64,000 nucleotides of DNA from an uncultured Omnitrophica bacterium (GCA_947085655.1 CAMTXH010000014.1:9825-73824); one strand, 5' to 3'; counted from the first letter of the stretch, positions 28,052-58,900 are shown. Notes: generated from the sequence alone by a model not told the origin. Program-made: numbers and translations.

Positions 28052-28095
28052 CGAAAGCCGGGTGAACTAAAAATTCATCCGGCTTTTGTTTTCCT
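28052..28095. terminator. Putative rho-independent terminator after the 7,085-aa gene
   Basis: Inverted repeat AAAGCCGG (28054-28061) and CCGGCTTT (28079-28086) with a 17-nt loop, followed by TTTGTTTTCC. Lies 27 nt after the stop. Confidence 0.35.
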
Positions 28096-28186: not shown

Positions 28187-28216
28187 TGTTTAAAAAAGAG
28201 CATTTCGTGATATACT
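28187..28216 (+). promoter_or_regulatory. Candidate sigma70-like promoter (-35 TTGTTT, -10 TATACT) in the AT-rich intergenic region upstream of the 6,100-aa gene
   Basis: TTGTTT at 28187-28192 and TATACT at 28211-28216 with an 18-nt spacer. The surrounding 231 bp is strikingly AT-rich compared with the coding DNA and carries repeated AAACAAAG motifs (28103, 28121, 28171). Confidence 0.3.
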
Positions 28217-28256
28217 TAAGATAGAAGACGTAACTTCTTAAAGGACAGTTCCTTCA

Positions 28257-43200: not shown

Positions 43201-46200
43201 TAGGAACCCTCGGCACCATTGCCTATGGTCTTGCCGCCCTCTTTGGTGTTCCGGCCCTTTCCGCTCCGGCGCTTGCCATCGGTGCGGTTTCAGGAACAGG
43301 ACTCATTGCGCTGGGATGGCTTATGTCGAAAATACGGTCTGATTCTTTGATGGCACCGGCGCTCAAGAACTTTTTCGGAATTACAATCCTCTCCGGTACA
43401 GCGGCATATGGGCTCATGGCCGGAATAGGCGGGCTGGCCGCGAAACTCTTATCATCCCTTGAAGATCCCCTTATCTCGACAGCACTCCTTGCTCTGGGCC
43501 CGCTTTCCGCATTGGGCCTCGTCGGAACCAGTTGGCTCTGGTCTCGCCATCAGGAGGATGAATCCAGTTTTGCCAAGAAACTCCACAGTGTCTCCAAAAC
43601 GCTCGGCATCGCCGCAGCAGGGTATACCGCCCTTTATTTGGCGACTGCGCCCGTCGGAGGAATCGCCCTCTACTGGTTGGCGCTGCTCGGAGCCGGCACT
43701 CTTGCGCTTCCGGGCTTTGTTATCCAAGTCGTTCAGTTTGCCAAGCGGTGGTTTGGGGACAGCGACGAATATCCGGCCATCAGCGCCTCTGAAAAGAAAG
43801 CAGCACTGGATGAGGAAATTCAAAGGGCGATCTCCGGGAATTCGCCGGTTCGGATTTACGAAGGAGATATCAGTGAAAAAGGCCGGGCCAGCAGCCGGCT
43901 GGATCCGCTCTTTGTGGTGAACGAAGCCCACCGGACAAAGCAAAACGGATTTGTAGATGGAGACAGGAACAGATTTGAGGTTGTGAGAGAGACGGCCGAG
44001 TGGCTTAATGGAGTCATTGAAGATGAAAACACCATTACGGTCCGGCGGGCCTCTGCTCCTGAGATACATTTGGTTGAAACTCCGCAACGCGATTACGCTG
44101 AATCGGTCGCGGCAAACTCCGATGTCGAGCAGGCAAGAGAAGATTTAGACAAGACCATTCGGGAAGTTGGAAAGAAAGCTCTGCGGGGAGAGGACGCAGA
44201 AAACTTAAGGGCGCTTGGGCTTCAAAAAGAAGTCGAGCAAGGATCGGTCCACGTCTTTAGCGGCTTGATGAGAGGCATTTCTGCAATCGGAAGCGCATTG
44301 AGTTGGATGACCAGAAAAGCGGCCTTTGTCGGCGCGTTCACAGCGGCCTGGCTTATCCCGGGCCTGGGATTCTTTGATGCGGGAACCGGTCTGGGAGCTC
44401 TTCTTGTCAAGGCAACCTTTATTTTGGCCACCGGTGTCTTTGGACTCATTGTCGGCTCCTTGGCACGAACCGCGGTCAAAATTGCTTTTACTTTTACTGC
44501 CACAAAATTCATCGGACTCATCGGCTGGATTGAAAAACCGCACAAGCGGTTTGGGAACCGGCCGATCCCTCTCCTGAGCCGGTTTGTGAATATCGAAAAT
44601 GTGGTCTTAAGCCGCGGTTTTGTGAAATTGGTGAGGGCGTACGGCCATGAGCCGAAAGCATTCCTGGCAAACTACTATGGCGAGGCGGAGTATCCGCTTG
44701 TCTTCGGGATTCCGTTCCTTCCGGGTCACTTCAAATTTGTGGTTCCCCTTCTCACAAGGAAGTTCCATGTGCATCGCGTCCCGAGCGAGTTGTCGCTCAC
44801 GGCGATGTTGACGAAACTCCATGAGCCGCCGATGACCCTTCCGGTTTCCGGCTATAACTTCCTCGAGGGAATCATCCAGCGTTTTAAGGTGGTCCTCATC
44901 TACACCGAGGATACCCTCTCCGGCATAGGGGTCACGAAGCCGGTCTGGCAGCCGGTGATGCCTGCCAAAGGGGAACTCCGGATGGAAGGGCTCATGGCGA
45001 TCGACACGTTTAGACGGTTCAACCAGTCACCGCAGCGGGCCCTCCTTTATGCGAAAGGGAAAGGACTTTATGAGGCGATTGAGGCGCTGGCTCGCGGCGA
45101 TGATCCGTATGTCGGGGACGCGTTCGCCCCATTTGCAGAATTCCTCCGGAACATGTTCTTTATGAAAGCATTTGACGATAATCAGGTGGATGTGGACGCT
45201 TCTGCCAAGAGCGCCGGGTTCTTCAGTTACATTTTCGGGCGCTTTACAAACCGGGACCTTGTCGGGAAGCATATCACCGAATTCGGTCTCGGCGATGCTC
45301 AGGCGTTCCGGGAGTTTGACCGGTATCATGCTTTGGATGAACAATTAGGTGGTAGGTTTGTGGATAACAGGTACCTCAAAGGTAGATTTTATCAGGTGAT
45401 GGATGCGGTTCAGGAGAGGATCCGTGAGGCGGTCCGTGAGCGCTTCGGAGTGGAACCGGAAGCATATTATCCGGTCGATCCGGAAATCGTGGCGGCTGCA
45501 GCTATGCTCTGGAATAAGTGGGAACGCGAAAATCTTCAAGACAATATTCACCGCCAGCTGGGACTCGGCCATCTAGCGGAGGAAGTCAATTCTATTCGCA
45601 TGAACCCAGAGATAACTATGGCGGTGGAGAACCTCTGGAGAGAGTGGATGAGGAATAGACGAACTATTCATAACATGGAAGAAGCACTTCAAATCCAAGT
45701 CGGTCGCATCCGTGGCACGGATAGAACTTCTGTATCGATTGCCCCAGAAATAGTAGGAGTGATTGAAAATCTCTGGGAACAGTGGATAAGAACTGAACAA
45801 TACATTACCCGGGAAGCGCTTGAGTCAGTCCTTGTGCTCTGGCAAGAAAGGGAAGATACAGGATTTTCTATTAACGAGGCCTTGAATCGCTTGCAGGATA
45901 CGATTGTCAATATTACCAACGAAAGATTAGGACTTGAGGATAGAAATTCTGTAATGAATAATCCCGAAGCGATCAAAGTCATCAATGCAACGCAACGACT
46001 TTGGAGAGTGTGGGATGAAACTGGGCGTGGACCGACATTTTCTGTCAACGAGGTTCTTGGAAGATTTGAAGAACTGATTGAGGTGACAGATGCGTCCGAT
46101 GGCGGGAGAAGGTATATCGAAGAATCAAAGCCCCTCCTTACCGAACAAGGAATCACTTATGAGAGAGAGATCGCTGTGACTTTGGCGCCCCAGGGGATGG

Positions 46201-46559
46201 ATGCCGAACTCTTTATCGAGCATGTTTCGTTCCTGAATCCTACAACGCGGGAGTTGGTCGGGCAGATTAAGGACAAAGTCAATGATGAAGACGTTGCGCG
46301 GATGATTGTGCCGGGGAGCGCCACAGAAGAGTTGACCGCGGAACGGCTTGTCAAACTCTATGCTCTCCTCGCCCATCACTTTAACGGCGGAAAGGATATC
46401 GAAGAGATTCGATTGCCCGAAGGCTTTACGTTGGATCAACTCGGAGAGATCGACTTCTTCGGGCTTGATATGATTGATGCGCATATTTCCCCGGATTTGA
46501 TCCGGGCGGTCTTTACCGAACAGCAGCTTGAAATGATGCACGTCTTGACGAAGTTCTAA
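28257..46559 (+). CDS. Giant membrane-anchored protein (6,100 aa, GTG start) with a peptidoglycan-binding domain, a GH-like region, a very long coiled coil, hydrophobic blocks and C-terminal repeats
   Basis: Uninterrupted 18.3 kb frame. The first in-frame start is GTG at 28257; the next Met is about 124 codons in, after the predicted TM helix. AAGGA lies 11 nt upstream. N-terminus: RPLAFIVVETFLWTTLSFDIALAFEHHAAVHLRPKA. Sub-features are listed separately. Confidence 0.8.
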   Translation: MKNSEEKSPEIKGRFPSWFRPLAFIVVETFLWTTLSFDIALAFEHHAAVHLRPKASTLKDGGVKGLREALRGEELLDLPAEPSVAEDGARKGKPFRGKYPTLHFLHRPSETGGLELSGFETDIMKMAIAPSAGSNEGLSLSNEEAAAFFRFARAVGFEDLMMIQNMNDRLNRVPEGDRRRLLQGAVPSLKKKVVPVLPYVLNPFDEGLAEILLSGTEELNYSLQSRLSGAFAKASEVKGTPVEKLAHLRNELLEEGDPSKARLLRILELIAELQTPEAKRKAIVAFTARYLFSVENSLQLVKIFGLAERGSETASDGARKTIEGGYPSFEYMHQHFSPAELALVRFMMHPDAAFDLQGRLSVPEILFFFKALHAVGFENLLLIQNVEKELEQTALQKKEIQEAIHGLQAKIPPLLEKVTFSGKATIGLSSILATRTETLDDGVKHRLQKVLGMIQRANDRFAVQTVDDLREGKMRLPDSKPNQRLIAILRLIADLPTVPEKEKAAVAFAKRFQLDDQDLFHLQRVMGVSRVMSGRLPNEEQLRKGLNRYIRLLILSVLRKGSPAKVLAKPTLRDSQFSDEEISQFLVEAYQHPDRLVETARRQFEEARAGLVQRISPEDLRGYEHALLQMGPEIRGFLEQYALVSPEGTEGRAAVASRDRPPVSPLEPESQTAESSGPLNELLSVIRDLFVQEIGYPLPNDALELFRRPLQKGQITPDQIIFQITELSDRLTDKEKRAHQGDRIYWVRFAKEAIAIEPITLIQHGKTPSLKGVPYQKELYELMNRGAITNTQAYWTKALIRHAGFDPKKLGAVLPAENGSRRFVDFGALISVLEAAGSGKYTDETKANIVYDFFRHIATRESRKEHFEDPRTPLHLFGALYPFVESNVHAFIYEVTEDITKGEKRFLYDPEGKLLPPEKTDEVVQKVSRLLAGKGRKLKRVDQYLLGRVVKTVLTMDYEKGPSERTRDGGTRLASRARGRLRRAFHNFLLLTQLVYSVTVSVNPPSAAAALPARVAVHQTVSVQLPEPEFSEPRVETKAVDESNKPILSRGSRGESVADLQRMLEKTVHFDELGQLLAGTGVDIPNLIAGWKIDGLYGWRTEAMVYAFQTKYGLTQDGDVGPATWPKLESASETVGTPIHARASLNENLLPQEPHDVTEGPLLASLTPDVMSDVAMTAAFQPAAPSPVPTSARPGTHAVVAPVTKTAVSPAGTPPTPPSPADTLSVTAAATADTLQVSGVPLLTYDYVSGDLSKYPMYLTEDRDGRKGRFGGFTEEESRQVRRALRGEDPAFPGKYRGTGAIVWRSLGQTLWRNAEGAREMIEEAENFVNEAVSKTPSTDVSKWKASLFAPFPVAGVQDAVFLMDPLGIPAARIPEYVAGLSKAGVNTLFVNTGGLMMLDEAKRPEARAKYNFLLLEARARGIRTGNWVSDVVLMGDPFLPMALDDVELIRKYFNLLADEVLPFDFHLVDLQPMDDLQWANYVSTVRFIQTALAVNGGGDLFVSVDPQEVSHAEYWNLPDGVGYMVKAYATTEAGILHNVYQAKLGFAASLFDGVEVSDGVRSLLEQARSVSKELERLAAVRNHEASRGPAEAAFQKGLELLKKIREAFEPALGTARTAERPYTFVVGTSPRLEDGDRSFFRQEDRIAAVTGETAAFLEGTDGETFEGRSIHFNSFQDQLHVLKGGKTSWAKGVRLQVVDPAVRWTVQAIEDAVNFIRPGVRPKRTEEVSRPLLTQTGDFLILKGKGLSGGIFGASFEVPLADNLGILYGTMTGLRGIAFTHVADIQKETFSLRVVDADGNVVPLKDADGNERPSLNAEELRALTQAGRALLLPRDRGKLYAEATFTVAKRLDDRPKDLGRIYSGNIVIPSNLPTQFGWEETFSEEVIIPAGVAEREITVRSPIAEGQVSQMRMFAVSEVRPHLEFISREAISGREIPRFMFGEERFQISGEEVVREGHEVVFPPLFYGVADTTAYFPFEFHNRGTVPVSRYLYHLVLTNQDAGVTLPPNGETREVVLNQERFRAWIETDEESGRQRVILEPVDGSFNGEVSIGGEVFSPPVFVSRHIKLKEVDFLARLEGNRIILEHARLGEGRLVADPAPIPKEILGVPTDGKTVSVEIDGRRFAGRMEGNRLTLVHEGGLITEPVLVDNVELQPSHVVVERLEVGVNSPDTKTGVDYSLRGYVEGDRIILEPTHDSGRLRTPFMIYDERMLRGSLRAEAESDLETYLDLRHLPPGGYKVSGIVYSVHLSGEEIQRIRLAEGAAPEADEVFGIHGSFRVGKPSLSTGAPGGHGFPRAHSPAAAVVETSIRNDGDAPVTVYPVGVSQNKRTGRVITTDEDRSDPHEAYFVTSTGERLEAVTLAAGEEMRVRVKLLLPEDPLDKEKRDFTAILVSLRKLDFERPLSDVRGEVLALFDQAESVGEEALQSRRQDERRHLETRSELERNRENTKDLDEALKGLREGTQKLEAALNGLDEARQDISETDDPEMISRIASGSIGAVSRGLREASDAVYGVRVLFVDTGKTSPKEKTEADGAYLGDRGILARTEPLLYEVQSESLLRWKFEGLASQMDDLRRAEAGILQLEADRERQREGLEEERAYLGRSLRAGPAAVSAQAGNLLLDALSGNTLMADLENAISTVMNDSLAVRVAELNGDDLTPKKRGFFGKVGYVLGRPFAAPVRAIGSLFSEGEKRVPPDQMLHALFPDSASVEAFREATFNATRTRLEEQGKGSLLQLMDFIALRDELSELNAELEANYKDVAEKEALIAANEEVDRILERHGGVAGVSEKIWRLVTMVLTLQGKEAPVVTVTDLSSLRDAVVQARELLPETLFAQLIQSMDREISDSQRREEAIQRTLASIGRLENEKLPEARTHRDRLAGDLAELKKRLGETLPLNADELRARYHSVLAELEVAIAEEKEAVRRLEAELAGLRERREALTRQISVDLEPRELLTQLEQELEALRDQSIPEIIRLSEEGEQALKKKEYEEAKRSFDQVLALEPLHPRSAQSEEVKEAIEQARKGWQKADEKLKEEGLPVGKVEATKITLAQTDRFLAVAISSMEMLRAEREKKKDEKRAEAFQGYLDKLFALRQKLHGMKEGDDLSSLLVEAEEVLDEAYESVSGFSLRVTGVNLALSFVRDKLKLGVIGLIPVFNVTIPDGRAPMQGPLRELTLGADAVRMTTESQPYAPSFKGEGERLIDRLFAGHTPSREADREAFDLEQKIRETERALGEERNQLKADESLLGVLTEKPIQKSHAKAPKVVTAEEKVTQNLIASREARDRAREALDVVQRDKQFAEDAALVHQKELELREAQIAFDSAVADSLAEELDASAQILYRHLVGRFEASEAMVRAQKGYEATGKWHLHTPFHLLKNPKQLFSLETFAGVGAAFFLGREEIPGGMGKKAMTAAGFPYPEHPLLSFTTGLVTVSSPDQELTLGAGAISIPDYLKQLDEYERGLRDERPTFPVGVGINFKLSEEDQRLLAKKYLTSKEAAYIIARVMAEEYADELIQGVQDLSRRTSDLEKGKADLARRKEEKRLLGRFIRRLEADSTRAASELERANLEAFRSAAALDSLKVLMARQREAEEGTGNYRYVKPPVPGSATPADTTAKVSPDTTGTATPASKSRGNKAIPTVLGGTALLWLAWLLRKSREWGESAKDGGNKGIFAIRNVAKEFRTQKVAPFTAKRYATRRVSQWEEPKKVVKNVVTFGTGIWNRMGLVDITPANPETETQAKIRTWVRRITKGALFGTATLLAASAFPGVGLLATAMLGGLALLPGSIKPLATVALVVGNMALGGLPFSFWLLFKSVLAVQFVPSGFVTLRHAVQNFYQHFAVSHTSLRESGEHIGRARFGRETYVTLRTLLIGAGLAGFSLLGIVSSPWWFLGIPANHLLFGFGELLFSLRRPPLTEAQFAAIASLRGRSLQDSEDRFNRRELRELSDDYNDFKREKERAENRKFRSEKEKAELFNAFLEYERGLKEETLRMQAEAEREISDRAIAAHQGIFETGYPYQGQHYDPLTEEEQIFLAELLMKYPHVVKLHLNDELGLVGKAEEGRIEATIAELERERPWLNPEERTNFFKSLDPDDLIAIMRVREEVRRVSLGNPSLTPWGRDDGVKQTLTALFAHYRLDTTAQHADVSHFDFGAYVRGASLSQIYLSFRKDKTQIALNPGLFVWTGWGLWMEIFHKTRTGEIPFRKGILALLLTPLTQVLSYYPNAAALRPLRGYEKDTNQRFSLRMIAESDPELDIWSWTFGVFARWIYGHLFTIAPEIVGGEIFLRDLIAPHRFEYKNEGGWIDPVTGIRVPMFYAKFAQELDPSRPPEDQLAAMLDAMGNPETTNTLFPGARVDRIHDLIYLGRLTEDSRSAMGKDGETERTSLHRDLIVSRLIRDDGVLVILPNGDSFLFRVANPGYLNRIAKGAALGMLLIVYLSGRVRVLPRLSIVNGRPVLENETTSGYETYAHEVREADEISREVSEARAQRAQQFIHRQMGQTYTIDPEGDRKEIRLGARVGYDPDSYGMAHFFRRGKAKIFGLIPLSLYGGAGDNNLEQVVKAFYDPEEVIRFVQEQIKEDQRKAGTFASLRDSFSNVTLKIEKETPDILHLSSATLDPAAQEAYALYLGQLLRMRGIDVPERILRAHAPALTHPLEALPTFIQHVVRAVLDIDEAAIQGEDHRLLYEGLFLATSKLYLKAIARSIADPYVTVEGTKRRDLVKAVDSLAAGIGTSAAPTRLTGFKESTALEFFLLSDERGERSAVGSGVARDLYYLSGKAGVMRLGDQTFGEWRGALHLMEKIRDRFFGQDRSWTWLGRRSATHGASELGSELFRISRNAEPGLQSHLEAFLRAASDQGLSIQRLHVTRGRDLVVVADYAGAQNYSRLKEKDGALFFDGKPMKRRNERVERILGEHGLNIRHAFERVIVFSPAEYDVLRNHDLYRTKELNVDAQDGARKARPATPTWLSRLRNGFVTYSRSYLLVGTLGTIAYGLAALFGVPALSAPALAIGAVSGTGLIALGWLMSKIRSDSLMAPALKNFFGITILSGTAAYGLMAGIGGLAAKLLSSLEDPLISTALLALGPLSALGLVGTSWLWSRHQEDESSFAKKLHSVSKTLGIAAAGYTALYLATAPVGGIALYWLALLGAGTLALPGFVIQVVQFAKRWFGDSDEYPAISASEKKAALDEEIQRAISGNSPVRIYEGDISEKGRASSRLDPLFVVNEAHRTKQNGFVDGDRNRFEVVRETAEWLNGVIEDENTITVRRASAPEIHLVETPQRDYAESVAANSDVEQAREDLDKTIREVGKKALRGEDAENLRALGLQKEVEQGSVHVFSGLMRGISAIGSALSWMTRKAAFVGAFTAAWLIPGLGFFDAGTGLGALLVKATFILATGVFGLIVGSLARTAVKIAFTFTATKFIGLIGWIEKPHKRFGNRPIPLLSRFVNIENVVLSRGFVKLVRAYGHEPKAFLANYYGEAEYPLVFGIPFLPGHFKFVVPLLTRKFHVHRVPSELSLTAMLTKLHEPPMTLPVSGYNFLEGIIQRFKVVLIYTEDTLSGIGVTKPVWQPVMPAKGELRMEGLMAIDTFRRFNQSPQRALLYAKGKGLYEAIEALARGDDPYVGDAFAPFAEFLRNMFFMKAFDDNQVDVDASAKSAGFFSYIFGRFTNRDLVGKHITEFGLGDAQAFREFDRYHALDEQLGGRFVDNRYLKGRFYQVMDAVQERIREAVRERFGVEPEAYYPVDPEIVAAAAMLWNKWERENLQDNIHRQLGLGHLAEEVNSIRMNPEITMAVENLWREWMRNRRTIHNMEEALQIQVGRIRGTDRTSVSIAPEIVGVIENLWEQWIRTEQYITREALESVLVLWQEREDTGFSINEALNRLQDTIVNITNERLGLEDRNSVMNNPEAIKVINATQRLWRVWDETGRGPTFSVNEVLGRFEELIEVTDASDGGRRYIEESKPLLTEQGITYEREIAVTLAPQGMDAELFIEHVSFLNPTTRELVGQIKDKVNDEDVARMIVPGSATEELTAERLVKLYALLAHHFNGGKDIEEIRLPEGFTLDQLGEIDFFGLDMIDAHISPDLIRAVFTEQQLEMMHVLTKF
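28620..29860 (+). repeat. Internal tandem duplication of an alpha-helical module of about 205 aa in the N-terminal region of the 6,100-aa protein
   Basis: Copy A has FFRFARAVGFEDLMMIQNMNDRL ... ARLLRILELIAELQTPEAKRKAIVAFTARYLF. Copy B has FFFKALHAVGFENLLLIQNVEKEL ... QRLIAILRLIADLPTVPEKEKAAVAFAKRFQL. Confidence 0.5.
31401..31644 (+). other. Peptidoglycan-binding domain (PG_binding_1-like)
   Basis: RGESVADLQRMLEK...GWKIDGLYGWRTEAMVYAFQTKYGLTQDGDVGPATWPKL matches the PG-binding three-helix consensus (G.xV..LQ..L...G...DG.FG..T..AV..FQ...GL..DG.VG..T). A Pro/Thr/Ala-rich linker follows (about 31790-31960). Confidence 0.6.
32300..32900 (+). other. Possible glycoside-hydrolase-like (TIM-barrel-like) region, very tentative
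   Basis: Alternating β-strand/α-helix pattern with conserved acidic residues (VFLMDPLGIP...GVNTLFVNTGG...GIRTGNWVSDVVLMGDPF...FDFHLVDLQPMDDL...LFVSVDPQE). Only loose resemblance to GH-like families. Needs an HMM search. Confidence 0.2.
35500..38300 (+). other. Extended coiled-coil region (E/R/L/A/K-rich heptad-like sequence) of more than 900 aa
   Basis: Long stretches such as LETRSELERNRENTKDLDEALKGLREGTQKLEAALNGLDEARQ and ELEVAIAEEKEAVRRLEAELAGLRERREALTRQ. Low-complexity charged helices typical of SMC- or myosin-tail-like coiled coils. Confidence 0.5.
39160..39990 (+). other. Hydrophobic, multi-helix membrane block A of the 6,100-aa protein
   Basis: IPTVLGGTALLWLAWLL, ALFGTATLLAASAFPGVGLLATAMLGGLALLPGSIKPLATVALVVGNMALGGLPFSFWLLFKSVLAVQFV, LLIGAGLAGFSLLGIVSSPWWFLGIPANHLLFGFGELLF. 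Confidence 0.45.
43170..44535 (+). other. Hydrophobic membrane blocks B (43170-43750) and C (44320-44535) of the 6,100-aa protein
   Basis: Block B: LLVGTLGTIAYGLAALFGVPALSAPALAIGAVSGTGLIALGWLM, ITILSGTAAYGLMAGIGGLAA, ALLALGPLSALGLVGTSWLW, AAAGYTALYLATAPVGGIALYWLALLGAGTLALPGFVIQVV. Block C: AAFVGAFTAAWLIPGLGFFDAGTGLGALLVKATFILATGVFGLIVGSLA. Confidence 0.45.
45478..46110 (+). repeat. Four tandem repeats of about 45-70 aa of a PE[IA]xxxxxNLW..W helix motif near the C-terminus of the 6,100-aa protein
   Basis: PEIVAAAAMLWNKWEREN / PEITMAVENLWREWMRNR / PEIVGVIENLWEQWIRTE / PEAIKVINATQRLWRVWDE. The repeat is also visible at nucleotide level (gagaacctctggagagagtgg versus gaaaatctctgggaacagtgg). Confidence 0.55.
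46230..46556 (+). other. Conserved C-terminal module (about 105 aa) shared with the next gene
   Basis: LNPTTRELVGQIKDKV...TAERLVKLYALLAHHFNGG...LPEGFTLDQLGEIDF here. LNPETRELVGKIQDKI...TAERLVKLHALLAHYFNGG...LPSGFQLNQLGAIDD at 50380-50690. About 50 % identity by eye. Confidence 0.6.
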
Positions 46560-46565
46560 AGGAAC

Positions 46566-49500
46566 ATGATGAACCGAAACAGGAAACGACAATTTGGAAT
46601 TCGATGGGTTGGCCTTATGGTGGCTCAAGCATTCGTCTTTGGCACCTTGCTGACAGATACTGCCTGGGCCTTCCGTCGAAACCCTTACGATCATCTTCGC
46701 CAGAGGCCCCTTGCCTCTCAGGATGGGGGAATGAAGGAACTGAAGGCGAAATTGACCGGGGGGGCTCCTACCGAAAATCTTCGGGAAGTTACGTCCAGCC
46801 CCCCCGTGCTCAATTCTGAGGGGGCAAGGGATTCTTTCCGACGGGGCGTTTTGAGACTGAGTCTTCTCGGACTTTTGGCCGGCTCGGGCGCCGCAATACC
46901 TGCCATCACCCATGCGGCCTTTCCTCTTTCTCCCCCGGCACAGGTGGAAGTTCAAGCACCCGACTCTTTAAAAGCAGTACGACTTGCACGGACGAAGCAG
47001 GCATACCTGAATGCCTATTTGAACTATCAGGAGGCCTTTTCAAGACAGAATAGGTCGTTAAGGGCGGTTCAGGAGGATGCTGCCTGGAGCAGGGTGGATG
47101 AAGAGTTTTTCCGGACGCTTGAAGCGATCCGGCAGTTTGTGAAATTCGAAGTAACGGCGATGGATAAAGTGATTGCGCTTCACACCTTTATTCCGGGAAG
47201 TGTCGGGAATGTCACCTTTGACGAATTTGCGCGGCTCATCCGGCAGGATGTGAACGCTCCCGGAGAGTTCTATATGCCGCCCGATCTTTTGAATCAGGTC
47301 TCCTTTGATATCACCGCAACGACCGAACTTGATTTTCAGGACGGGGTCCAGATTGAGGGCATTTTGACTGTGACCACTGCACGGGGTCCGGATCAGCGTG
47401 TTTATCAATATGAACTTCCTGTCACAGCAACCCTTAAGGACCCGGGAAAAATCGCGTTTCACTTTAATACGCTTCAACTCCGAAACGAGGGAAAGATCAC
47501 GAGGCGGCTCATTGATACGAAAGGAACCGAAACGGAAAGAGACGATGTGGTTTTGGGGAGCGGACAGGTCTCCCGGATCGAGGAAGGGGTGATTGCCAAT
47601 GTCAGTTTCAATGCCCTTTGGAACGGGATCGGTCTCCTTCCGAGGGGAGAACCGGTTTCGTTGGAAATCCCGTTTGTGCTGGCAGAGGGGGTCCTCCGTC
47701 CGGGGAGTTTCCAGGTTCTCACCAACAATATGGAGGATGTCGGCATTGCCCCAAGTTCTTCGGAGTTGAATCGATTTCCCTTTGAATACCAAATCCGCTA
47801 CGCCGATTCACCGACGCTTGCTCCTCTTTCCAAGGCGCATGGTTTGTATGAGTTGACCTTTACCCTCACCACCGACCGTCGGAGAACCTTTGTGGTCTCC
47901 GGCCAGATGGGATCCCTCTTGGGCCGTGGGGAGACCGGAACGCTCCGCTTCCGGCTTTCGGACCGTCCGATTGTGGAGACATTTCTGGGTCAGCGGGTCG
48001 GTGAGGTTTCCGAAGTTCCGACCGGATTTTATATCGTTTCGCTTTCGATTCTCGATTTGGATACAAAGTCTCCGCTGCAACCCAACGACCGGCTTGCAGG
48101 CCCGGTGGTCCGCCCGAATCTTTTGTTTGTGGGGAGCCGTGTTCAGTCCGGGTCGAATGCAGTGGCCACGGACGGGGAATGGTTTGTGGATGGAAGCGCC
48201 ATTTATACAGAAGGGAGGGGTCCCGGCACAAAGGTCTGGGCAGAGTACGAAATCGACCTTGGTCCCAATCCGCTCGAAGATCTCGGTCTTGTGGTCTATG
48301 CCAGGAACCGGACGCCAGGCCCCACGGGCACGTTCGATCTGGAGGTCTTTGTCGACGGAGAGCCGCTCGATCTGGGTCGGGGCTCACCTCATGTGATCCG
48401 CGTTCCGATTCATCCGGACGGTCTGGTCCGGACAAGCGGGACGCCGGCATTCGATCTTCCTTCAGGGGTGCATCGGTTCCGCTTGCAATGGGTGAACGAT
48501 ACCGGTCCTACAACGACCCTTCAGATTGAAAGGGTCTTGCTGACCATACCGAGACAGGCAGGAGGCGCCCTCTCTGCTCCCGTAGCCGGTGTTTCGATTC
48601 CGGAAGCAGGGGTCCTTGCAGAAGAACCGACCCGTGCTCAAGTCCGTGAAGAACGGCTCAAACAGGAGTTGGAAAGAGCCAAAAAAGAAAGCGAACGGCG
48701 CAGAAGTATTTTGGAGCCGAGACTTCTCCTTCTGCCTGAAGCCATGCGGCATCTTCCGATGGAATTGATTCATCTTTTACGGAACGACCAAGATTTGAGA
48801 GAGGCGGAGAAAACACTCCTTGCGCGCGCAGACGAGGTCCGCCAGGCCGCTCAAGGGGTGGAGGGAGCGGAGGCAGAGGTAGCGACGATGGAATGGCTTG
48901 AAACACAAAGGAAAAAACAGACGGCTCCTTATGCAACCGCTCGGATCACCGGTCTTAATTTGGAAGGGACGGAGGATGCGGTTGCTCATTTGAAACTCGG
49001 AGACTGGATCCGTCTCGGGCCGGTGGGTCTTTCCCCCTTTGTTGAATACCGGTTCAGAGCCCCTTATCTTTCGGGGAAATCGGAAAAAGACCAACTCCGC
49101 GACGAGGCGGCTGAAGTCCAAAAAGCGCTGGATGACATTGAGGCACGGATTAAAGCGGAGCGGGATCCGGAAGTGGCGAGGCGGCTGAATCAGGAAAGAG
49201 ACTCTCTCAAAAACCAACAGCTTGCCTTGGAAGAAAACATCGCTGAACTGGAACATCTGAAACGGGTCCTCCATCTGGAGGAGAATCTCCGATACGGCCT
49301 CCAAGGGTTTTACCTTCTTTCGGACCGGCATCTTGCCGGAAGTTTCCGGCTCGCCGGGTACGGCTCTCCGGTCTGGCTCGAAGAAGTGCTCCCCGGATAC
49401 GGGCATCTTCCGGGACTGAAGGAGCGCGGAACAAAAGTGAGCGAGTCGCAGCGGCTCCGGTTTGGTCTCCCGCGGCTTTATGAAGTCTCCAACACTCTTG

Positions 49501-50735
49501 CATGGGTTCATCCGAGCGATCTTTTGGAACTCGGCGGAAGCGGGATGCTCGTAACCGACCCGGACTTCTGGACGCTTTGGGCTCTTTCCACGCAGGCCCG
49601 TCTGAATCTTGGCTCCTCTTTCCAACTTGCTGTTGAACGGGGTGACGTCGGATTCGATGTTTCATTTTATGATTACCTCAGAGAAGCGACAGGCGGGGGG
49701 ACTTATCGGGAAGGGATCCTTGCGGCCTTGAGAGAAAAGGGTCTCGGAAATTCGTTCCATACTCAGGGAGACTACACTCTCGGCCTTCTTTCCTATCTAT
49801 GGGATAAAGGGGAAGGAAGTGCCGAATTTGGGACTGATTTCGGGGGGGCGTATCATCTGCGGCTGCAGGGGATTCTTTTGGGTGTGCCGTTTAATGCTCA
49901 AACGGTTCTTGCAAGACATGCCTCACCCCGAGTTGACGTTGGTATTTCGCGGGAAATCACCTCCCGGGGAAAACTTTTCGCATCGCTCGGAATAAATCCT
50001 AACGAGATAGATCCTAATCAGAAGGTAAAGTTTAGTCTCGGCCTTCGGATCGGGACTTCAAGACCGAGACTTCCGACAAAGCGCGACGCCTTCAATGCGT
50101 CTCAGGTCGGCGCTTCCTTTGAAAGGGACCTGAAACGGCTGGAACATCTCGGAGAGAATCCGGAAGAACTGATTCAGGGCGCGATCCCTTCGGAACTCCG
50201 TTTGAGAAGGAGCGAGGGAGAAACCGAATATACCGGACCGAGCGTTCGGGATCTGTTTGACCGTGTGAAACAAAAAATCGACGTGTCAGAATCAATCAGG
50301 CAGCAACTGGATCAAATTCAGACCACCGCAAAGTCTCTGACGCCTTCGAAGACCGATTCGTCGCTCTATATCCATCCTGTCAGCCGTCTCAATCCTGAAA
50401 CCCGCGAACTGGTCGGAAAGATTCAAGACAAAATAGACCCAAGCGCTTTACGGCGTCTTGTTCCTCCGGAAGAAAGATCTGATCGATTGACCGCCGAACG
50501 GCTCGTCAAACTCCATGCACTTTTAGCCCATTACTTCAATGGCGGGGAAGGGATGAGAGATATTCATCTCCCTTCCGGATTCCAGTTAAATCAACTCGGC
50601 GCCATCGATGATGTTTCTCTTGAAACCATCCATGCAACGACCTATGAAGGCCTTATCCTCAAGGTTTTCCCAGAGATGCAACAGTTGGAATTGGAGCAGC
50701 AGAAGCTTCAGTCGATGCGGGAAAAGCAGGTCTAA
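46566..50735 (+). CDS. Large membrane-anchored or secreted protein (1,389 aa) with a β-rich N-terminal half, a coiled-coil middle and the shared C-terminal module
   Basis: ATG-ATG at 46566 lies 6 nt after the upstream stop; AAGGAAC overlaps that stop. N-terminus RKRQFGIRWVGLMVAQAFVFGTLLTDTAWAF...HLRQRPLASQDGG fits the leader shared by neighbouring genes. Coiled coil around 48640-49260. The last about 105 aa are homologous to the end of the 6,100-aa protein. Confidence 0.75.
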   Translation: MMNRNRKRQFGIRWVGLMVAQAFVFGTLLTDTAWAFRRNPYDHLRQRPLASQDGGMKELKAKLTGGAPTENLREVTSSPPVLNSEGARDSFRRGVLRLSLLGLLAGSGAAIPAITHAAFPLSPPAQVEVQAPDSLKAVRLARTKQAYLNAYLNYQEAFSRQNRSLRAVQEDAAWSRVDEEFFRTLEAIRQFVKFEVTAMDKVIALHTFIPGSVGNVTFDEFARLIRQDVNAPGEFYMPPDLLNQVSFDITATTELDFQDGVQIEGILTVTTARGPDQRVYQYELPVTATLKDPGKIAFHFNTLQLRNEGKITRRLIDTKGTETERDDVVLGSGQVSRIEEGVIANVSFNALWNGIGLLPRGEPVSLEIPFVLAEGVLRPGSFQVLTNNMEDVGIAPSSSELNRFPFEYQIRYADSPTLAPLSKAHGLYELTFTLTTDRRRTFVVSGQMGSLLGRGETGTLRFRLSDRPIVETFLGQRVGEVSEVPTGFYIVSLSILDLDTKSPLQPNDRLAGPVVRPNLLFVGSRVQSGSNAVATDGEWFVDGSAIYTEGRGPGTKVWAEYEIDLGPNPLEDLGLVVYARNRTPGPTGTFDLEVFVDGEPLDLGRGSPHVIRVPIHPDGLVRTSGTPAFDLPSGVHRFRLQWVNDTGPTTTLQIERVLLTIPRQAGGALSAPVAGVSIPEAGVLAEEPTRAQVREERLKQELERAKKESERRRSILEPRLLLLPEAMRHLPMELIHLLRNDQDLREAEKTLLARADEVRQAAQGVEGAEAEVATMEWLETQRKKQTAPYATARITGLNLEGTEDAVAHLKLGDWIRLGPVGLSPFVEYRFRAPYLSGKSEKDQLRDEAAEVQKALDDIEARIKAERDPEVARRLNQERDSLKNQQLALEENIAELEHLKRVLHLEENLRYGLQGFYLLSDRHLAGSFRLAGYGSPVWLEEVLPGYGHLPGLKERGTKVSESQRLRFGLPRLYEVSNTLAWVHPSDLLELGGSGMLVTDPDFWTLWALSTQARLNLGSSFQLAVERGDVGFDVSFYDYLREATGGGTYREGILAALREKGLGNSFHTQGDYTLGLLSYLWDKGEGSAEFGTDFGGAYHLRLQGILLGVPFNAQTVLARHASPRVDVGISREITSRGKLFASLGINPNEIDPNQKVKFSLGLRIGTSRPRLPTKRDAFNASQVGASFERDLKRLEHLGENPEELIQGAIPSELRLRRSEGETEYTGPSVRDLFDRVKQKIDVSESIRQQLDQIQTTAKSLTPSKTDSSLYIHPVSRLNPETRELVGKIQDKIDPSALRRLVPPEERSDRLTAERLVKLHALLAHYFNGGEGMRDIHLPSGFQLNQLGAIDDVSLETIHATTYEGLILKVFPEMQQLELEQQKLQSMREKQV

Positions 50736-50947: not shown

Positions 50948-53900
50948 ATGGACCGATTCAGGAAAAATTTCCTTTTACCCTTCAATCTTCTTGCGCTCCT
51001 GGTTACGGAGCTTTTTTTGGGATCCCTCCTCCTGATCGATTCTGCTTATGCTTCCTCCCGTCCTTCCTTTAATACGCTCCGGCCCAGGGCCTCCAAAGCG
51101 CACTCTCCTTTTTTTGATGCCCCCTTTGTTTCGACTCCGAACGATCTTAGGGCGGAAGACGGCGGAAAAAGAAAGAGCACCGAAGAAAGGTGGCGGGAAG
51201 TTTTTGTCAAAGCGCAAACACTCTATCAATTTCTTGATGAAGGCCTTTTCCAGAGGGGGGGCGGAGTAACGCGCCCCATTCCCAATTCGGGAGAGGTCTG
51301 GGAGAAAGTCGTACGGCAACTTGAGAAAATCCAAAAAACCGTCCGGCCTTACGGTGAGGAACAGATATCTCTGAGCATTCAAGAAATACTGAAGGCCCTT
51401 TACCATTACAAATATGAAAGCGGCGCGCCGGGAGGAGATATGACCAGCATTTTGATTGCGGCCCACTCCCGGGTCTCAGTTGAACTTCTACCAAGAATCA
51501 AAGCCCTTGCCGGAATCCGGAGACTTGAAGATATCGTAAGGGAGGATTTGTCAAAGACGGAGGAGATTGACCGGCGGCGGCTTCCGGAACTCCCCGATTG
51601 GGAAAAACTGGAGGAGGAAGGACAGCTTCAAGACGCCTTCATTGTTGTTTCTCTTTTGGCCGGAAAGGGAAGCCGTTTTCATGTGGGAGAAGAGAGTCCG
51701 CCGAAAGTGGTGTATCCCATCGGGAATGAACCCCTTGCTTGGTATACGCTGCAAGGAATCCGGGATCTCCGTCATGAAGGGTTTCCCACCTTTACGATTG
51801 GAATTGTTGGGGGTCATCCCACCCCGGATGGCAAATCCGACCGCGTCATGGAAAAAATCGGGACAGGGTACGTGGACCGCTATGTCCGTCAGTCGGTCCA
51901 GCGCGGTTCCGGCCACTCCGCTTTCTTTGCAACATATGCGATTCCGAAAACTTACCCCGGATACGTGATTGTTACGTCAGGAGATGTAGTGGTTCCGAAG
52001 GAGGCGCTGAAACTTTTGATTCGGGAACACCGGCGCTCGGGCGCTGCTCTTTCCATTCTCACCACCGACCTTGAGAATCCTCAAGGCAAGGGGCGAATTA
52101 TCCGAAGGGAAAACGGCATCATTGACCGGATTATGGAGCAGTCGGATATCGACCAAGTCATAGAGGAGGGAAAGACCGTTACTCTTGCAGACGGAAAGGT
52201 GCTGAGCGGCGAAGAACTCCGCGCGATTAAGGAGATCAACCTGGGTGTCTATGCTGCCAGAGCGAAGACATTTTTCGCAGCGCTCCGGGAAGTCGAAAAC
52301 GACAAACGGTTCGAAGAGTGGTATGTGACGGATGTGATTGCGGAGTTAAGGAAGCAGGATCAAAGAATCGAGGGAGTCCGTTTCTTGAAGGCATCCGATA
52401 TCCGAAAGCTTTCAGGGGCAAACGATATTTCGGAGTTCAAAAACATCGTCTCGGAATTTCTTGAGGAACTTTTGTTTCCGGATACGGTGGGGCGCATTAA
52501 TGAGATTCTGACCGATGCCTTTGGCGGCCTGGGAGAGGAGGCGCCGCTTCAGGCCCTGAACACCGTCCTGACCGCAGCCCGGGTCTATCAACATCTTCCG
52601 CCGAAGGATGGCACCAAAACATCGGACGACATCTTTCCAGAAGTGGTCTCCCGCGCGGCCAAGGTCTCAAGCGATACCATACAATTCCAGGCAGCGCTTG
52701 AACGGGAGCTTCAAGCCGCTTTTCACCATGCGCAGGATGGCGGCATCAGGGAGGGGTTCAAAAGATTGGTTGAGCTGGGGCAGACGGATATCGGAGATCT
52801 TTCGCATTGGGTCCGTAACCGGATTCTCACCCGGAAACTCCGTCATCGGAATGTGATTCTCCACGGACGGCTCACGTCCGGAGAGATTACCATCGGACCG
52901 GAAGTGGACCTGAGCGATTTTAGAGGCGGAGAGATTGCTGCGGGTACCCAGATCACCGGAAAAAGCAAAATCGGCCCCGGAACACACCTCAGCGGAACCA
53001 TCCATAATTCCGTGATTGCAGAAGGCGTCCAGATTTACCGGGGACGGGAAATCCGGGATACGGCGATTGAGGAAGGAGCGGTGGTTGAAGAGAGTAAACT
53101 CATCAATACCACTGTGGGGAGAAATGCCTACCTTGAAAACGCCCAGGTGAGCGACTACGATTTGGAAGAGAATGTCCGGGTGATTCATGCCTCCCTTTCG
53201 ATGGACGGTGAGAGTTCCTTTGGAAACGGCGTTGAAATCCGGACCGGCCCCGAGAAAGAGGGAAAATGGGAAGTCCTTGCCTATGACGGACTCACATGGA
53301 AAGAGGCAAAAGAGGTCATCACCCGGCGAGCGGACACCGCCTTCCTGACCGGCTTCCGGGAAAAGGTCGGTCGACATGTTCAGGAAGTTGCTTCCAGAGG
53401 AGGCCGCGTGGGGAGGGGAGCTGTGATTGACCGGACACCGGTTCTCAAGAATGTGAGGGTGGGGCCGTTTGCGCACATTGAAAACGCCAGGGAAATCCGG
53501 GACGCCTCTATTTTAAGCACGAAGCAATTTCCGACGCATGTCAACTCCGGCGCCATTATCCGGCATGCGATTGTCCAAGAGGGAAGTTACGTCGGGGAGC
53601 ATTCCAATGTGAGTCATGCGATTCTTTTGAAGCACTCCGGCGCTGCAGATGGCGTGAAGGTGGAAGAGTCGTGGATTGCCCCGCATTCCATCATGCGGTT
53701 CGGACATGTAGTCGCCTCTTCCATCGGGCCTTTTGTCGGAAAAAACCACCCCTCGATTTTGATTGCGGTTCAATGGCTTGAGGGGAGGGGGAATATCGGA
53801 GGGCAGCATACGGGAAGTAACCACGCCGGAACCGGCCCAACCTATGTAGCGTGGTATCCCAAATTTGCATTTTTCGGAACCAATACGGATGTTCTTTATC

Positions 53901-55921: not shown

Positions 55922-58900
55922 ATGATCCGGCGTCTTATCTCCGTTATCCTCATTGAAACCTTCCTATTGAGTTCCCTCGGCACAGAATTTGTACGGGCCG
56001 AGCCGGTCATCTTTTCCCAGATGTTGCTCAGGGCCCGAAGCGTTGCCAGCGACGGCTCTTCCCGCCAGGAGCTCACTGACTCCCTCCGGACTGCAGACTC
56101 AATCGAAACGCCCCAGGATGTTCCCGCGGAGACCCCCTTCGGAAGTGAAGCAGAGCTCCGGAGGAAAATTTCGGGCCAGACCTTTACGCCGATTAGAGGC
56201 GGTGCCCAGATCGAAACCGTTTATCTCAGCCGGGATCTTGCTTTGTACGTTCCCAGGTTCACCGGGGCACTTTATTTAAGCGATACGGCCCGGTCGGAAA
56301 TAGATAAAAATCCTTTTTTGAAATTTTCTTATCAGTTGGCCAATCGGCTTGGATTCCCCCTCGCCATATCCCTGAAACAAAAAATCAAGTCGGCTATCCA
56401 ACAGGTGCGGGAAGATCTCGTTGGTTCAGATCCGGTCGGCCCAGCCCTTTTACAGAGCTACCGGCTGGCGGAGGGATTGGGGCCGCTGGTCGATCCCTTT
56501 CGCGTTCTGTGGGATGTCTCCATCAAAACGAAGAAGGGGAAGGTTGTGGATTTGCCTCTTGTCATTGTGAGGGAAAGAAGTAACACCTTTCTCATCGACG
56601 ACCTGAAAAGACTGGAGAACTCCGAAGAGGCAAGACAAAAAATCGAGGAGGTCTTTCGTCTTGAGGAAACCCTTTGGGAAAAGGGGATTGTCAATCTGGA
56701 CATCCTTTTCTTAAGAAACGCCCGAACCCGAAACGGCAACGTTGTCCTGCGGGATTTGGGAAATCTGACGCAAGATGGGGCGCATGTCCTTCTCCTCTTG
56801 GAGCGGCTTCACACCGGCGGCTTCAGCCGGAGATTTCATCCCATTGAGAAAGGGGCAAGGAGGATTTCGCGATGGGTCTCGCCCGAGCTCGGGACGTATT
56901 ACAAACGCCGGGCCTACGAGGTCTATTCCGCCGAAAACTTTCTCCGTCACTGGCCCTCCCCCATTCCTTCCGCTTCCGTGTCGGACGGCGGGGACAAAGT
57001 GCCGGAAGAAGGCAAACAGATCCCCCGCTGGACTATTCCGCGGGCCGCTTTGTTAGGTTCCTTCATCCTTGTTCCCAGCGTTTATCTGTCCGTCTCTCAT
57101 TTTTTGGAAGGGTATGCTTTTTTGAGAACGCACTATACCTGGCAGACGGATGTAACAGCCGGCGCATTGATTGTCGGACTCTCTGACATGTTGGGCCAAT
57201 GGATGGCCTATCGTTCAAAGGGCGTCCCCATTCTTAAGAAACAACTCGTTCTGGCCGCGGCGCTCGGAGGTTTGTTCGGATGGACCTACGGGGTTTTTTA
57301 CCACTGGATTGAGCCGTTTTCTCTTTGGAGCCGGGTGGGACTTGCCGCTTTCATTGGAAGCGCCAAGGGGGCTGTGTATGCCCTCATGGTCGGAAAAATC
57401 AAAATGAGTTCTCTTCCCCGTTTCCGAGACCATTACCGGACGAGACGCCAGGTCGAGAAATTCGTGACAGTGATGGCGTTTGAAATACCGCTTCGATTTT
57501 TGAGACATGTCATGATTCAGGGATGGGTGGACCCTTTTTACCGCCAGATTGTGAGTTTTGCCAGTAACGCCATTCTAGCCCCCATCGGCGGATGGATTTT
57601 TAACCGCCTCCAGGTGCCCCTTCCCGGTTTGGTCCAATTTCTGGAAAATACCCTTGCGCGACTGGGGATTGATGTGAGGACGAAAAGGGCACAGGATGGG
57701 GGGCGTCAAGTCTCTTCGGCCGAAGTGGCCCGGGAAGTGGCTGAGGCGGCGCGGGAGGAAAAATGGAAAGGCGAAAGTTTTATGAAAAGCCTTTTCATGG
57801 GCGAGTTTCGTCCGGAACTCCTTTCCCCGTATCCGGTGCAGGATCCGGTCGACAAAGCGGTGGGCGATGCCACTCTTGCGGGACTCGAGAGCTTCTTGAA
57901 GGAAAACGTTGACCCGTCACAAATTGACCGCAACACCAAAATCCCCCAGGATGTCATCGATGGCCTCTTCGCCCTCGGCGCCTTCGGCATGAGAATTCCC
58001 AAGGAGTACGGGGGGCTCGGGCTTTCCCAGACCAATTATTTGCGGGCGCTTCAGCTTACGGCAAGTTACAGCCCGATCGTGTCGGCCCTTCTCTCCGTGC
58101 ACCAGAGCGTCGGGCTTCCCCAGCCGCTTAAAATCGTTTATGCAGAGGCGCAGAAAGAGGGGGATAGGGCCATCATCGAGAAGACGCGGCGCCAGATGCA
58201 GAAATACTACCCGGAAATGGCCACGCATGCCCTTTCCGCCTTTTCCATCACCGAGAAGGAAGCGGGCTCCGATCCTTCAAAGGCCTCTTTGCGCGCGGAA
58301 CGTGCGCCGAATGGAAAAGGGTGGATTCTGAACGGGAGGAAACTCTGGACGACAAACGGGCCGATCGCGCGCTACATCCTCGTCCTCGCCAGAACCCCGG
58401 ATCAGAACGGCAGACCGCAGCTCACCGCCTTTATCGTCGATACGAACTCCCCGGGACTCCAAAGAACCCGGTTGGAATTTTCAGGACTACGCGGCATCGA
58501 AAATGGGGAGTTATTGATGGACAATGTGTATGTCTCAGACGAGGATGTTTTATGGAAGGAGGGGAAAGGACTTAAAATCGCTCTTGCAACGCTCAATACC
58601 GGCCGCCTCTCCATCGCCGCGATCACCCTGGGGACCCTGAAGCGTTCTCTGAATCTTGCCCGCGGGTACGCCAGCCGGCGCATCCAGTGGGGGAAGCCGA
58701 TCGGCCAGCACGAGGCCATGGCCCAGAAAATTGCGGGGATGGCAAGGACCATCTTTGCGCTGGAGGCGGTCCTCTGGCATGCCTCCCTCCTGGTGGACCA
58801 GGTCCCCGAGGAACAACTCGATATCCGGCTTGAGTCCTCCGCGTCGAAACTGGAGACCACGGAGCTGGGATGGCGCATCATTGATGACTTGGTGCAAATC

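Follow-up and report, generated by a model that had tools for sequence, protein, structure and literature searches.

The window that we analysed, a 64,000-nucleotide stretch from an uncultured Omnitrophica bacterium (GCA_947085655.1 CAMTXH010000014.1:9825-73824), encodes on its plus strand, where all features described here lie, a 6,100-residue protein (G6100, ORF 28257-46559) followed by a 1,389-residue protein (G1389, ORF 46566-50735), which raises the question of why two otherwise different large proteins should end in the same way. The original prediction had seen a homologous module of ~105 residues at both C-termini, and the homology is well borne out: BLASTP of the last 149 residues of each gave 63/122 identities (52%, E 3e-40), the full-length comparison gave 196 columns at 41% identity (E 4e-30; residues 1198-1376 of G1389 vs. 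5902-6093 of G6100), and the Smith-Waterman score of 288 lay far above that of 2,000 shuffles (28.4 +/- 4.9, maximum 57; z = 53). A profile built from sequences outside the window likewise recognized the module of G6100 (E 1.4e-27) and that of G1389 (E 8.6e-28), and by profile match the unit is longer than first thought, about 130-135 residues. It occupies residues 5968-6100 in G6100 (46158..46556; profile match 5968-6097) and residues 1254-1389 in G1389 (50325..50732, by profile match), and its conserved polar positions are P-x-TR-x-L-x-G, TAE, LP-x-GF and D.

Similarity at the DNA level, also part of the original prediction, is present in two places (46332-46390 vs. 50487-50545, 83% identical over 59 nt; 46233-46277 vs. 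50388-50432, 76% over 45 nt), with none beyond the coding core, the flanks of the two modules being unrelated. Across the module the DNA is ~60% identical, with values of 0.61, 0.71 and 0.40 at the three codon positions, and the same codon is kept at 28 of the 62 conserved residues. The low third-position identity, the few shared codons and the unrelated flanks argue for an old duplication under purifying selection. One might still suppose that recent segmental duplication or gene conversion left this similarity behind incidentally, without any functional meaning, as the modules of G1389 and G6100, ~50% identical within one genome, group together rather than with their orthologs, suggesting past exchange. 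We regard this as extremely improbable in view of the third-position identity, the overall DNA divergence and the dissimilar flanks, and each orthologous lineage keeps its module across several genomes; a recent duplication taking in flanking non-coding DNA is ruled out by the DNA comparison. The C-terminal cap shared by these otherwise different large proteins is thus real, conserved and under selection, and while the observation of the original prediction is confirmed, its interpretation is supported in part.

When 1.84 billion representative proteins were scanned in full with HMMER, 10 true members were recovered, 8 of them beyond the window pair, with the module at the extreme C-terminus in every one; all organism-labelled records belong to Candidatus Omnitrophota, and the whole family of ~13 sequences is too small for covariation analysis. 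Pfam and NCBIfam gave zero matches to the module, and even at E <= 10 no member matched a binding-domain family, SLH and PG_binding included. The compact helical fold that had been proposed for testing was indeed predicted by AlphaFold for the last 150 residues of G1389 (eight helices, pLDDT 86, pTM 0.82; model built with a 10-sequence alignment); as modelled, the module folds as a monomer in which an obvious interface was not seen, and a search of PDB and viral structures for a fold match to it found none. T9SS CTD, dockerin and SLH were each considered as the identity of the module and set aside, given the lack of a match and the predicted all-alpha fold. On this modelling, the module is an all-alpha domain of ~130 residues, compact and not described before, and so far found only in Candidatus Omnitrophota.

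A third copy, sought elsewhere in the genome, was found in divergent form at the end of the upstream 7,091-residue protein (G7091, ORF 6750-28025), at about 27597..28022. In hhalign the family profile matched this C-terminus with a probability of 82.6% (E 9.7e-6), rising to 92.4% (E 5.1e-7 over 77 columns) when the L007 ortholog was added; a search of all six-frame ORFs with the external profile gave one further match only, G7091 (E 0.022), and the C-terminus of its L007 ortholog matches the module of P0008 (BLASTP E 7e-5). The alignment of the G7091 copy is confident for the N-terminal half of the module only. Modules are absent from the two proteins encoded downstream of G1389, H1655 (50948..55915; leader, GlmU-like nucleotidyltransferase, LbH/DUF4954 and carbamate kinase by Pfam and NCBIfam) and I1449 (55922..60271; leader and acyl-CoA dehydrogenase core at residues 655-1152). 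G6100 and G1389 probably form one transcription unit apart from G7091: the G1389 start codon lies 6 nt past the G6100 stop with AGGA just before it, and G7091 is followed by a terminator-like hairpin (28052..28088) and a promoter-like region (28118-28216), in an intergenic region whose conserved blocks align with the equivalent L007 region. The full run in the window, G7091-type, G6100-type, G1389-type and then the H1655-type enzyme fusion, is kept wholly or partly in four further assemblies, with partial runs in L003+L004, L007/L008 and L009.

What, then, might the module do? Every contig examined has two or three bearers, adjacent to one another, and such neighbouring bearers, rather than many scattered cargoes, suit a complex-specific tag. 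We lean, at somewhat less than an even chance, towards a role in docking or assembly that the bearers have in common. The folded domain, alike in every bearer, would stand free at the C-terminal end, and through it the products of neighbouring genes could bind one common partner, or each other; the bearers may in this way come together with the enzyme fusions encoded further downstream in a single membrane-associated complex, probably on the cytoplasmic face. Modular PKS/NRPS subunits, too, are very large proteins from consecutive genes, and they end in small helical C-terminal docking domains that hold successive subunits together, potential partners being conserved regions at the N-terminus of the protein that follows; these domains share no sequence or fold similarity with the module, whose bearers are membrane giants or unknown proteins rather than synthases, and the analogy is one of mechanism alone. 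Dockerin/cohesin pairs and the 'Dockerin-type' Omnitrophota giants (West-Roberts et al. 2023 preprint) offer a second parallel in modular attachment, with a docking function that for the module is our surmise, but no PF00404 match and no Ca-binding repeats are present in it; neither G6100 nor G7091 yielded the SecA_DEAD and C39 domains that typify Archaeovorins.

Between the two options originally offered, partner docking fits better than general secretion or sorting. In the latter case an export machine, for which the T2SS/type-IV-pilus-like system reported beside Omnitrophota giant genes is a candidate, would recognize the module in its folded form and carry its bearers to the cell surface or fix them there. 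Export is favoured by the invariably terminal position of the module, by the PG_binding_1 domain of G6100 and by the description of Omnitrophota giants with mostly extracellular domains and with secretion loci nearby (West-Roberts preprint), as well as by the leader of the bearers. The claim that everything upstream of the module is unrelated did not hold, since the N-terminal ~80 residues of G6100 and G1389 are also similar (33% over 83 residues, E 1e-5); these leaders (28257..28490 and 46566..46781, respectively, from BLASTP of the two N-termini and a ten-sequence leader alignment) are of one family, common to at least four and probably five window proteins; that of G6100 has a basic stretch, a hydrophobic helix in which a Glu is conserved, 'ALAF', 'HLRPKAS' and 'DGG', and the leaders of the bearers show a basic n-region, a hydrophobic core and an A-x-A site. 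However, the enzyme fusions with carbamate kinase and acyl-CoA dehydrogenase have the leader but no module, so whatever the leader does can proceed without the module; a secretion domain should mark many cargoes, whereas the family is extremely rare, with 10 members in the whole scan, and marks only two or three adjacent genes per contig examined; and no secretion-system gene was recognized within the window. T9SS CTD, PEP-CTERM, LPXTG and GlyGly-CTERM signals also cap unrelated large proteins with an N-terminal leader, yet no known CTD family was matched: the T9SS CTD folds as a beta-sandwich and occurs in each genome on tens of cargo proteins, vs. a 130-residue all-alpha module on two or three adjacent genes, and sortase-type signals comprise a short motif, TM helix and basic tail as opposed to a globular domain without any HMM match. 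Secretion seems to us unlikely on balance.

The location of the domain bears on the same choice. G6100 and G7091 are multi-pass membrane proteins by hydropathy, the term 'surface proteins' for the bearers being an assumption. In most orthologs of G6100 the module directly follows a GlmU-like nucleotidyltransferase domain, as in P0003, P0009, L009up and L006, with no hydrophobic segment between; the region before the module in P0003 and P0009 is 37% identical to the GlmU-like residues 169-610 of H1655. A nucleotidyltransferase depends on NTPs as substrates, a point in favour of a cytoplasmic module and against export in these giants, and by a crude measure Lys/Arg is richer on the C-terminal flank of the last hydrophobic segment in G6100, P0003 and G7091. 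G1389-type proteins have only an N-terminal leader resembling a Sec signal (basic n-region, A-x-A); if it exports the body of G1389, that module would be outside the cell and those of the giants inside, which counts against shared docking. H1655, I1449 and the nucleotidyltransferase domain of the P0003/P0009 giants fit the 'multi-enzyme metabolic', membrane-anchored Omnitrophota proteins of over 10 kaa, with TM segments and with sugar-metabolism and kinase domains strung together (2026 preprint, 10.64898/2026.06.07.730766), although the window proteins measure 1.4-7 kaa and a keyword search of that preprint turned up nothing on a shared C-terminal domain, junction motifs or cleavage.

A third idea casts the module as a pro-domain or regulatory peptide that a cut at DG[GA] would release to act as an intramolecular chaperone, auto-inhibitor or separate small protein. 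DGG precedes the module in G6100 (…TDAS-DGG-RRY…, 46098..46106, 20 residues before it), P0009, P0012, L006 and L009up, and DGA in P0003 and P0008, at 20-40 residues in all seven bearers; in the enzyme fusions, the DGG motifs fall between domains in H1655 (residues 71, 597, 1292 and 1613) and outside the domain in I1449 (residues 355, 592, 1249 and 1423; tail 'DGGRR…ESGV'), at positions kept among orthologs. Moreover, P0012 is a complete 312-residue gene with the module, which can therefore work on a small protein. C39 peptidases cut after Gly-Gly or Gly-Ala, the residues with which the motif closes, and C39 domains are reported in other Omnitrophota giants (West-Roberts preprint), but the sequence ahead of it lacks the hydrophobic pattern seen in bacteriocin leaders, with [RKQS] and [AST] at positions -4 and -5, and neither a C39 nor any other peptidase domain was detected within the window. 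Given also that G1389, P0004, P0005 and P0011 have no DG[GA] ahead of the module and that cleavage is purely hypothetical, we find release doubtful. Release would be compatible with a docking role.

The conserved polar positions could also form a binding site by which the module, like SLH or peptidoglycan-binding domains, tethers proteins to a lipid, a nucleotide sugar or a polymer of the cell wall, and many functions encoded in the cluster concern amino sugars and carbohydrates (GlmU-like, NAGPA, CBM9/CBM30, NagB-like). SLH domains carry a 'TRAE' motif to which the 'TAE…KLYxLL' of the module is loosely similar, a lead only, in favor of such an anchor. The failure of any binding-domain family or known fold to match speaks against it, and we consider it less probable still than secretion or release.

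Docking, our tentative choice, receives some further encouragement from how the module moves. P0011 shares 63% identity with P0005 along its body, but its module is only 35% identical to that of P0005 and much closer, at 73%, to the giant-type module of L006, with the break in similarity exactly at the module boundary; the module is a cassette, exchanged between neighbouring genes and often set off by DG[GA]. Likeness of modules across body types in one genome, as in G1389 and G6100, is what would be expected if the modules of a cell must fit one partner, but this is not universal, the two L009 modules being only 27.5% identical. In L005, the region that precedes 'DGG + module' in P0012 is joined via DGG straight to a G1389-type protein without the module (the fusion ORF is seen incompletely, as it continues past the contig end), which hints, in Rosetta-stone fashion, that these proteins are normally linked through the module.

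The C-termini of the two adjacent large proteins G6100 (6,100 aa; 28257-46559, + strand) and G1389 (1,389 aa; 46566-50735, + strand) are homologous, as the original prediction had held. BLASTP of their last 149 residues yielded 52% identity over 122 residues (E 3e-40), with the alignment reaching 196 columns at 41% identity when the full-length proteins were compared, and the Smith-Waterman score was 288 vs. 28.4 +/- 4.9 in 2,000 shuffles (z = 53). The likeness described at the nucleotide level was also recovered, confined to the coding core, with one match of 59 nt at 83% (46332-46390 vs. 50487-50545) and another of 45 nt at 76%. Flanking and intergenic DNA of the two genes revealed no relatedness upon comparison, and identity within the module was 0.61, 0.71 and 0.40 at the three codon positions; these unrelated flanks and the low third-position identity argue against a recent segmental duplication. 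The shared C-terminus is an old duplication that has been maintained by selection. Two details of the prediction needed revision: 1) the unit, put at about 105 residues, spans about 130-135 residues by profile match; 2) the two proteins are not entirely unrelated upstream of it, since similarity was also detected over their N-terminal ~80 residues (E 1e-5).

A third copy, which was searched for, resides in divergent form at the C-terminus of the preceding giant G7091 (7,091 aa; 6750-28025, + strand). By eye the likeness to the other modules is weak, and pairwise tests were marginal (shuffle p 0.0025-0.017). The family profile matched this C-terminus (hhalign prob 82.6%, E 9.7e-6), and a profile built only from members outside the window, when run over all six-frame ORFs of the window, picked it up as the only additional match. 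At the C-terminus, the G7091 ortholog at locus L007 in another assembly is 39% identical to G7091, and this C-terminus matches a canonical module by BLASTP (E 7e-5); after addition of this ortholog, profile-profile comparison of the G7091 type with the module rose to prob 92.4% (E 5.1e-7). The module thus ends three consecutive genes, the first in divergent form.

Among 1.84 billion representative proteins, a full HMMER scan found 12 matches, comprising two repeat-protein artefacts, two window proteins and eight others, with each of the eight outside members carrying the module at its very C-terminus and constituting a singleton 90% cluster. Those with names come from Candidatus Omnitrophota MAGs and are annotated as 'hypothetical' or 'peptidoglycan-binding' (P0003, P0008 and P0011 being NCBI entries from such MAGs). 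The alignment of G6100 with P0003 and with P0009 extends through thousands of residues; the assignment of the window to Omnitrophota is by homology. Pattern scans of contigs located module loci in one metagenome and two Omnitrophota MAGs but in no viral contig; scans with the two window sequences alone had found none, the loci L003-L006 being recovered with a five-sequence alignment (A5), and an alignment of 10 sequences was too diverse for the design of a scan pattern. All-against-all BLAST together with the fetched loci resolved three orthologous groups in constant order, namely the G7091-type giant, the G6100-type giant (P0003, P0009, the ORF upstream in L009 and a fragment in L006) and the G1389 type (P0004, P0005, P0008 and P0011), followed by an enzyme fusion of the H1655 type that lacks the module. 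This order is found, whole or in part, in the window, L003+L004, L007/L008 and L009, with two or three adjacent module bearers per contig. The module is a new and narrowly distributed domain family.

The family signature reads approximately LFIEK-x2-LL[DN]P-x-TRNL[VI]GKI-x-DK … TAE-x3-KLY-x-LL-x2-YF-x-G … I-x-LP-x-GF … D … F-x3-Q-x3-L, ending in a helix rich in Q, E and L with a hydrophobic last residue. Structure prediction, which had been proposed as a check, gave a compact all-alpha AlphaFold model of eight helices (pLDDT 86); a model from the two window sequences alone was unusable (pLDDT 47). Neither the module profile nor the G1389-family profile matched any PDB sequence. Among known C-terminal domains, the sorting domain of type IX secretion (T9SS) is a beta-sandwich of about 70-100 residues, whereas the module is modeled as all-alpha; Por_Secre_tail had no Pfam or NCBIfam match in G1389 and was absent among the matches of 10 members at E <= 10. 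T9SS domains would be borne by many unlinked cargo proteins per genome; for the module, two or three adjacent copies were counted on each contig covered, and 10 members in the 1.84 billion proteins. Dockerin (PF00404), with its duplicated calcium-binding loop-helix repeats, likewise had no match in the module family. An SLH-like domain (PF00395), suggested by the 'TAE…KLY' stretch, was rejected as no profile or fold match was obtained. We also rejected a polymorphic toxin, given that the C-terminus is conserved while the bodies vary, and that no small immunity-like gene follows, G1389 starting 6 nt past G6100. A search of the literature found no description of the module, or of the leader and DGG motif considered below.

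Several comparisons indicate that the module behaves as a cassette, as judged from sequence. In P0003, P0009, the L009 upstream ORF and L006, a GlmU-like nucleotidyltransferase and a 'DG[GA]' motif immediately precede the module. In the window, this enzyme domain sits not in the giant but at the front of H1655, where residues 169-610 (51452-52777) are 37% identical to P0003 5034-5484, with further counterparts in P0009 (6211-6614) and the L009 upstream ORF; it ends at DG[GA] both in the giants and in H1655 (DGG-597). The domain has been relocated from one neighbouring gene to another. The module itself is found in P0012, a complete gene of only 312 residues. P0011 and P0005 share 63% identity in their bodies; in the module, P0011 has just 35% with P0005 vs. 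73% with the giant-type module of L006, and the break in identity lies at the module boundary. The two canonical modules of the window are 50% identical and nearer to each other than to their orthologs, whereas the two in L009 are 27.5% identical and not nearer each other. In the L005 ORF (P0011), the region found ahead of 'DGG + module' in P0012 runs via DGG straight into a G1389-type protein, without an intervening module; the G1389-type part carries a giant-type module, and gene fusion and module swap apparently coincide here. This ORF (L005 1-5226; MBI4435846.1) runs off the contig end, and a TM-rich region and the domain shared with P0012 precede its 'TASDGGRK' join.

As for function, we favor, with somewhat less than even confidence, a role of the module in docking or assembly within one specific complex, probably in the cytoplasm. 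Many cargo proteins would be expected to carry a general secretion or sorting signal; docking or assembly is favored over this alternative because two or three adjacent genes are marked rather than many cargoes. Also in favor of a cytoplasmic docking role, most giant orthologs have the module next to an NTP-dependent enzyme domain, no TM segment separating the two, and the C-terminal flank of the last TM-like segments is more positive by a crude estimate. The L005 fusion, lacking an intervening module, hints in the same direction. PKS/NRPS docking domains, in which a C-terminal helical domain binds the N-terminus of the next subunit, would offer an analogy in architecture alone. Were the module merely a lineage-specific structural cap, it would be a narrow new family with annotation value and no surprise. 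As a well-defined, foldable and conserved unit linking three consecutive large genes, it provides a handle for asking which proteins of the cluster work together.

The main conflict with the docking reading comes from the N-terminal leader common to the large window proteins (+ strand: 28257-28490 in G6100, 46566-46781 in G1389, 50948-51187 in H1655, 55922-56098 in the enzyme fusion I1449 and, probably, 6750-6974 in G7091). The leader runs from a basic stretch through a hydrophobic helix, in which a conserved Glu/Gln is followed by Phe, to 'A-x-A-F' and then 'HLRP[KR]A'. Visual inspection suggests a likeness to Sec as well as to prepilin-type (class III) signals; several leaders (A|FIVVE, A|LLVTE, S|VILIE, A|LVVAE) agree by eye with the class III pattern, which calls for Glu at +5 and a small residue at -1, but others have Gln or Gly in place of Glu +5, and no Pfam or NCBIfam match to N_methyl/prepilin profiles was found. 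In G1389 this N-terminal stretch is the only hydrophobic segment by hydropathy, and if it were a Sec signal, the G1389 body and module would be exported. Yet the same leader is found on the carbamate kinase and acyl-CoA dehydrogenase fusions, which are expected to be cytoplasmic.

The junction motif '[AST][RKQS]-D-G-[GA]-x-[KR]' was found in four settings: 1) after every leader ('HLRPKAS…DGG'); 2) at every junction between Pfam domains in H1655, I1449 and their orthologs; 3) at aligned positions in orthologs despite differing flanks; 4) in seven members, upstream of the module at a distance of 20-40 residues. Window sites (+ strand) are 28434-28442, 46098-46106, 46722-46730, 51158-51166, 52736-52744, 54821-54829, 55784-55792, 56984-56992, 57695-57703, 59666-59674 and 60188-60196, and the motif is also present in L004, L005, L006 and L009. 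None of 18 DGG sites falls inside a domain envelope, although envelopes make up 34-52% of sequence (chance about 1e-4 by our own arithmetic). The motif could be a candidate linker signature or a double-glycine-like processing site. C39 peptidases cut after Gly-Gly and Gly-Ala, which occupy positions -2/-1 of their substrates. DG[GA], as a putative site of this kind, lies at junctions and keeps its position among orthologs, but it is preceded by [AST][RKQS] instead of the conserved hydrophobic residues at -4, -7 and -12. No peptidase domain, and hence no cognate C39, was found in the window proteins with Pfam and NCBIfam. C39 domains have been reported in other Omnitrophota giants, the cleavage points of which are stated to be unknown (West-Roberts et al., preprint). 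We have also considered, as an unlikely scenario, that DG[GA] sites are where processing occurs, or at the least where one cassette meets the next, such that the giants and multi-domain proteins of the cluster would be polyproteins with DG[GA]-delimited units such as a leader pro-region, nucleotidyltransferase, LbH, carbamate kinase and acyl-CoA dehydrogenase, and the terminal module would hold the pieces, released or hinged, together on a single scaffold. If true, this would furnish concrete, testable cleavage sites for Omnitrophota giants; the motif suggests exact places to seek proteolytic processing in metaproteomes. Separately, the module-less cluster proteins end in 'DGG[RE][RK]', 25-45 residues and [SN]GV-stop (55784-55915, 60188-60271; downstream ORFs of L004 and L005), and almost every protein with the leader, whether or not it bears the module, has a terminal [GQK]-[VLI]; this may be a C-terminal recognition signal, e.g. 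a PDZ or tail-specific protease ligand.

To our knowledge, Omnitrophota giant genes are an active puzzle, with mostly unannotated sequence and with the assembly and processing of their proteins not known. Archaeovorin-type giants exceed 10 kaa and have SecA_DEAD or SecA preprotein-binding domains and many TM helices; G6100 and G7091 show several TM-like segments, in clusters, by hydropathy and are 6.1 and 7.1 kaa long, with PG_binding_1 as the sole Pfam domain of G6100 and none in G7091. G1389 had no Pfam or NCBIfam match. All long window ORFs lie on the + strand, and the sequence is also present in MAG contig CAYJWX010000009.1 (GCA_964374045.1) and in an assembly from run ERR4904391. Downstream, Pfam and NCBIfam assign a GlmU-like nucleotidyltransferase, LbH/DUF4954 and carbamate kinase to H1655 (50948-55915), an unusual fusion within one chain of 1,655 aa that is kept in other Omnitrophota, sometimes with an added NAGPA domain, and an acyl-CoA dehydrogenase core to I1449 (55922-60271), equally unusual in that the core is embedded in 1,449 aa. 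Two CBM9/CBM30 proteins are recognized by the same databases in the downstream part of the window, where three such paralogues follow in succession (window 60295-63797; L001 11165-11776). Segments within the giants P0003 and P0009 are similar to residues 283-543 of the protein J786. Upstream, 8-6766 encodes five proteins, each with an ordinary signal peptide and none with a recognizable domain; four upstream proteins of this description (8-829, 836-1681, 2015-4030, 4049-6766) all end hydrophobic-then-basic (…FFGIGRR, …LFRLR, …FFQPLRRPI, …RMFGRTR), possibly another C-terminal signal. The TAA stop of G6100 is followed by AGGAAC and the ATG of G1389 (46557-46571), and this 6-nt spacing suggests translational coupling; the public G1389 call (P0001, 1,372 aa) starts 17 codons later, within the leader, and is probably too short. 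Lastly, the region between G7091 and G6100 (28026-28256) aligns with the corresponding gap in L007 (9679-10000), some blocks being perfectly conserved, including a terminator hairpin (GAAAGCCGGGTGAA…CCGGCTTTT), 'AAACGAAACAA' and 'CGTGATATACTTAA'. All matches in an Rfam scan of this region were under gathering thresholds. The region is probably a terminator plus a promoter or 5' leader, and the proteins beside it are only about 25-45% identical between the two assemblies.
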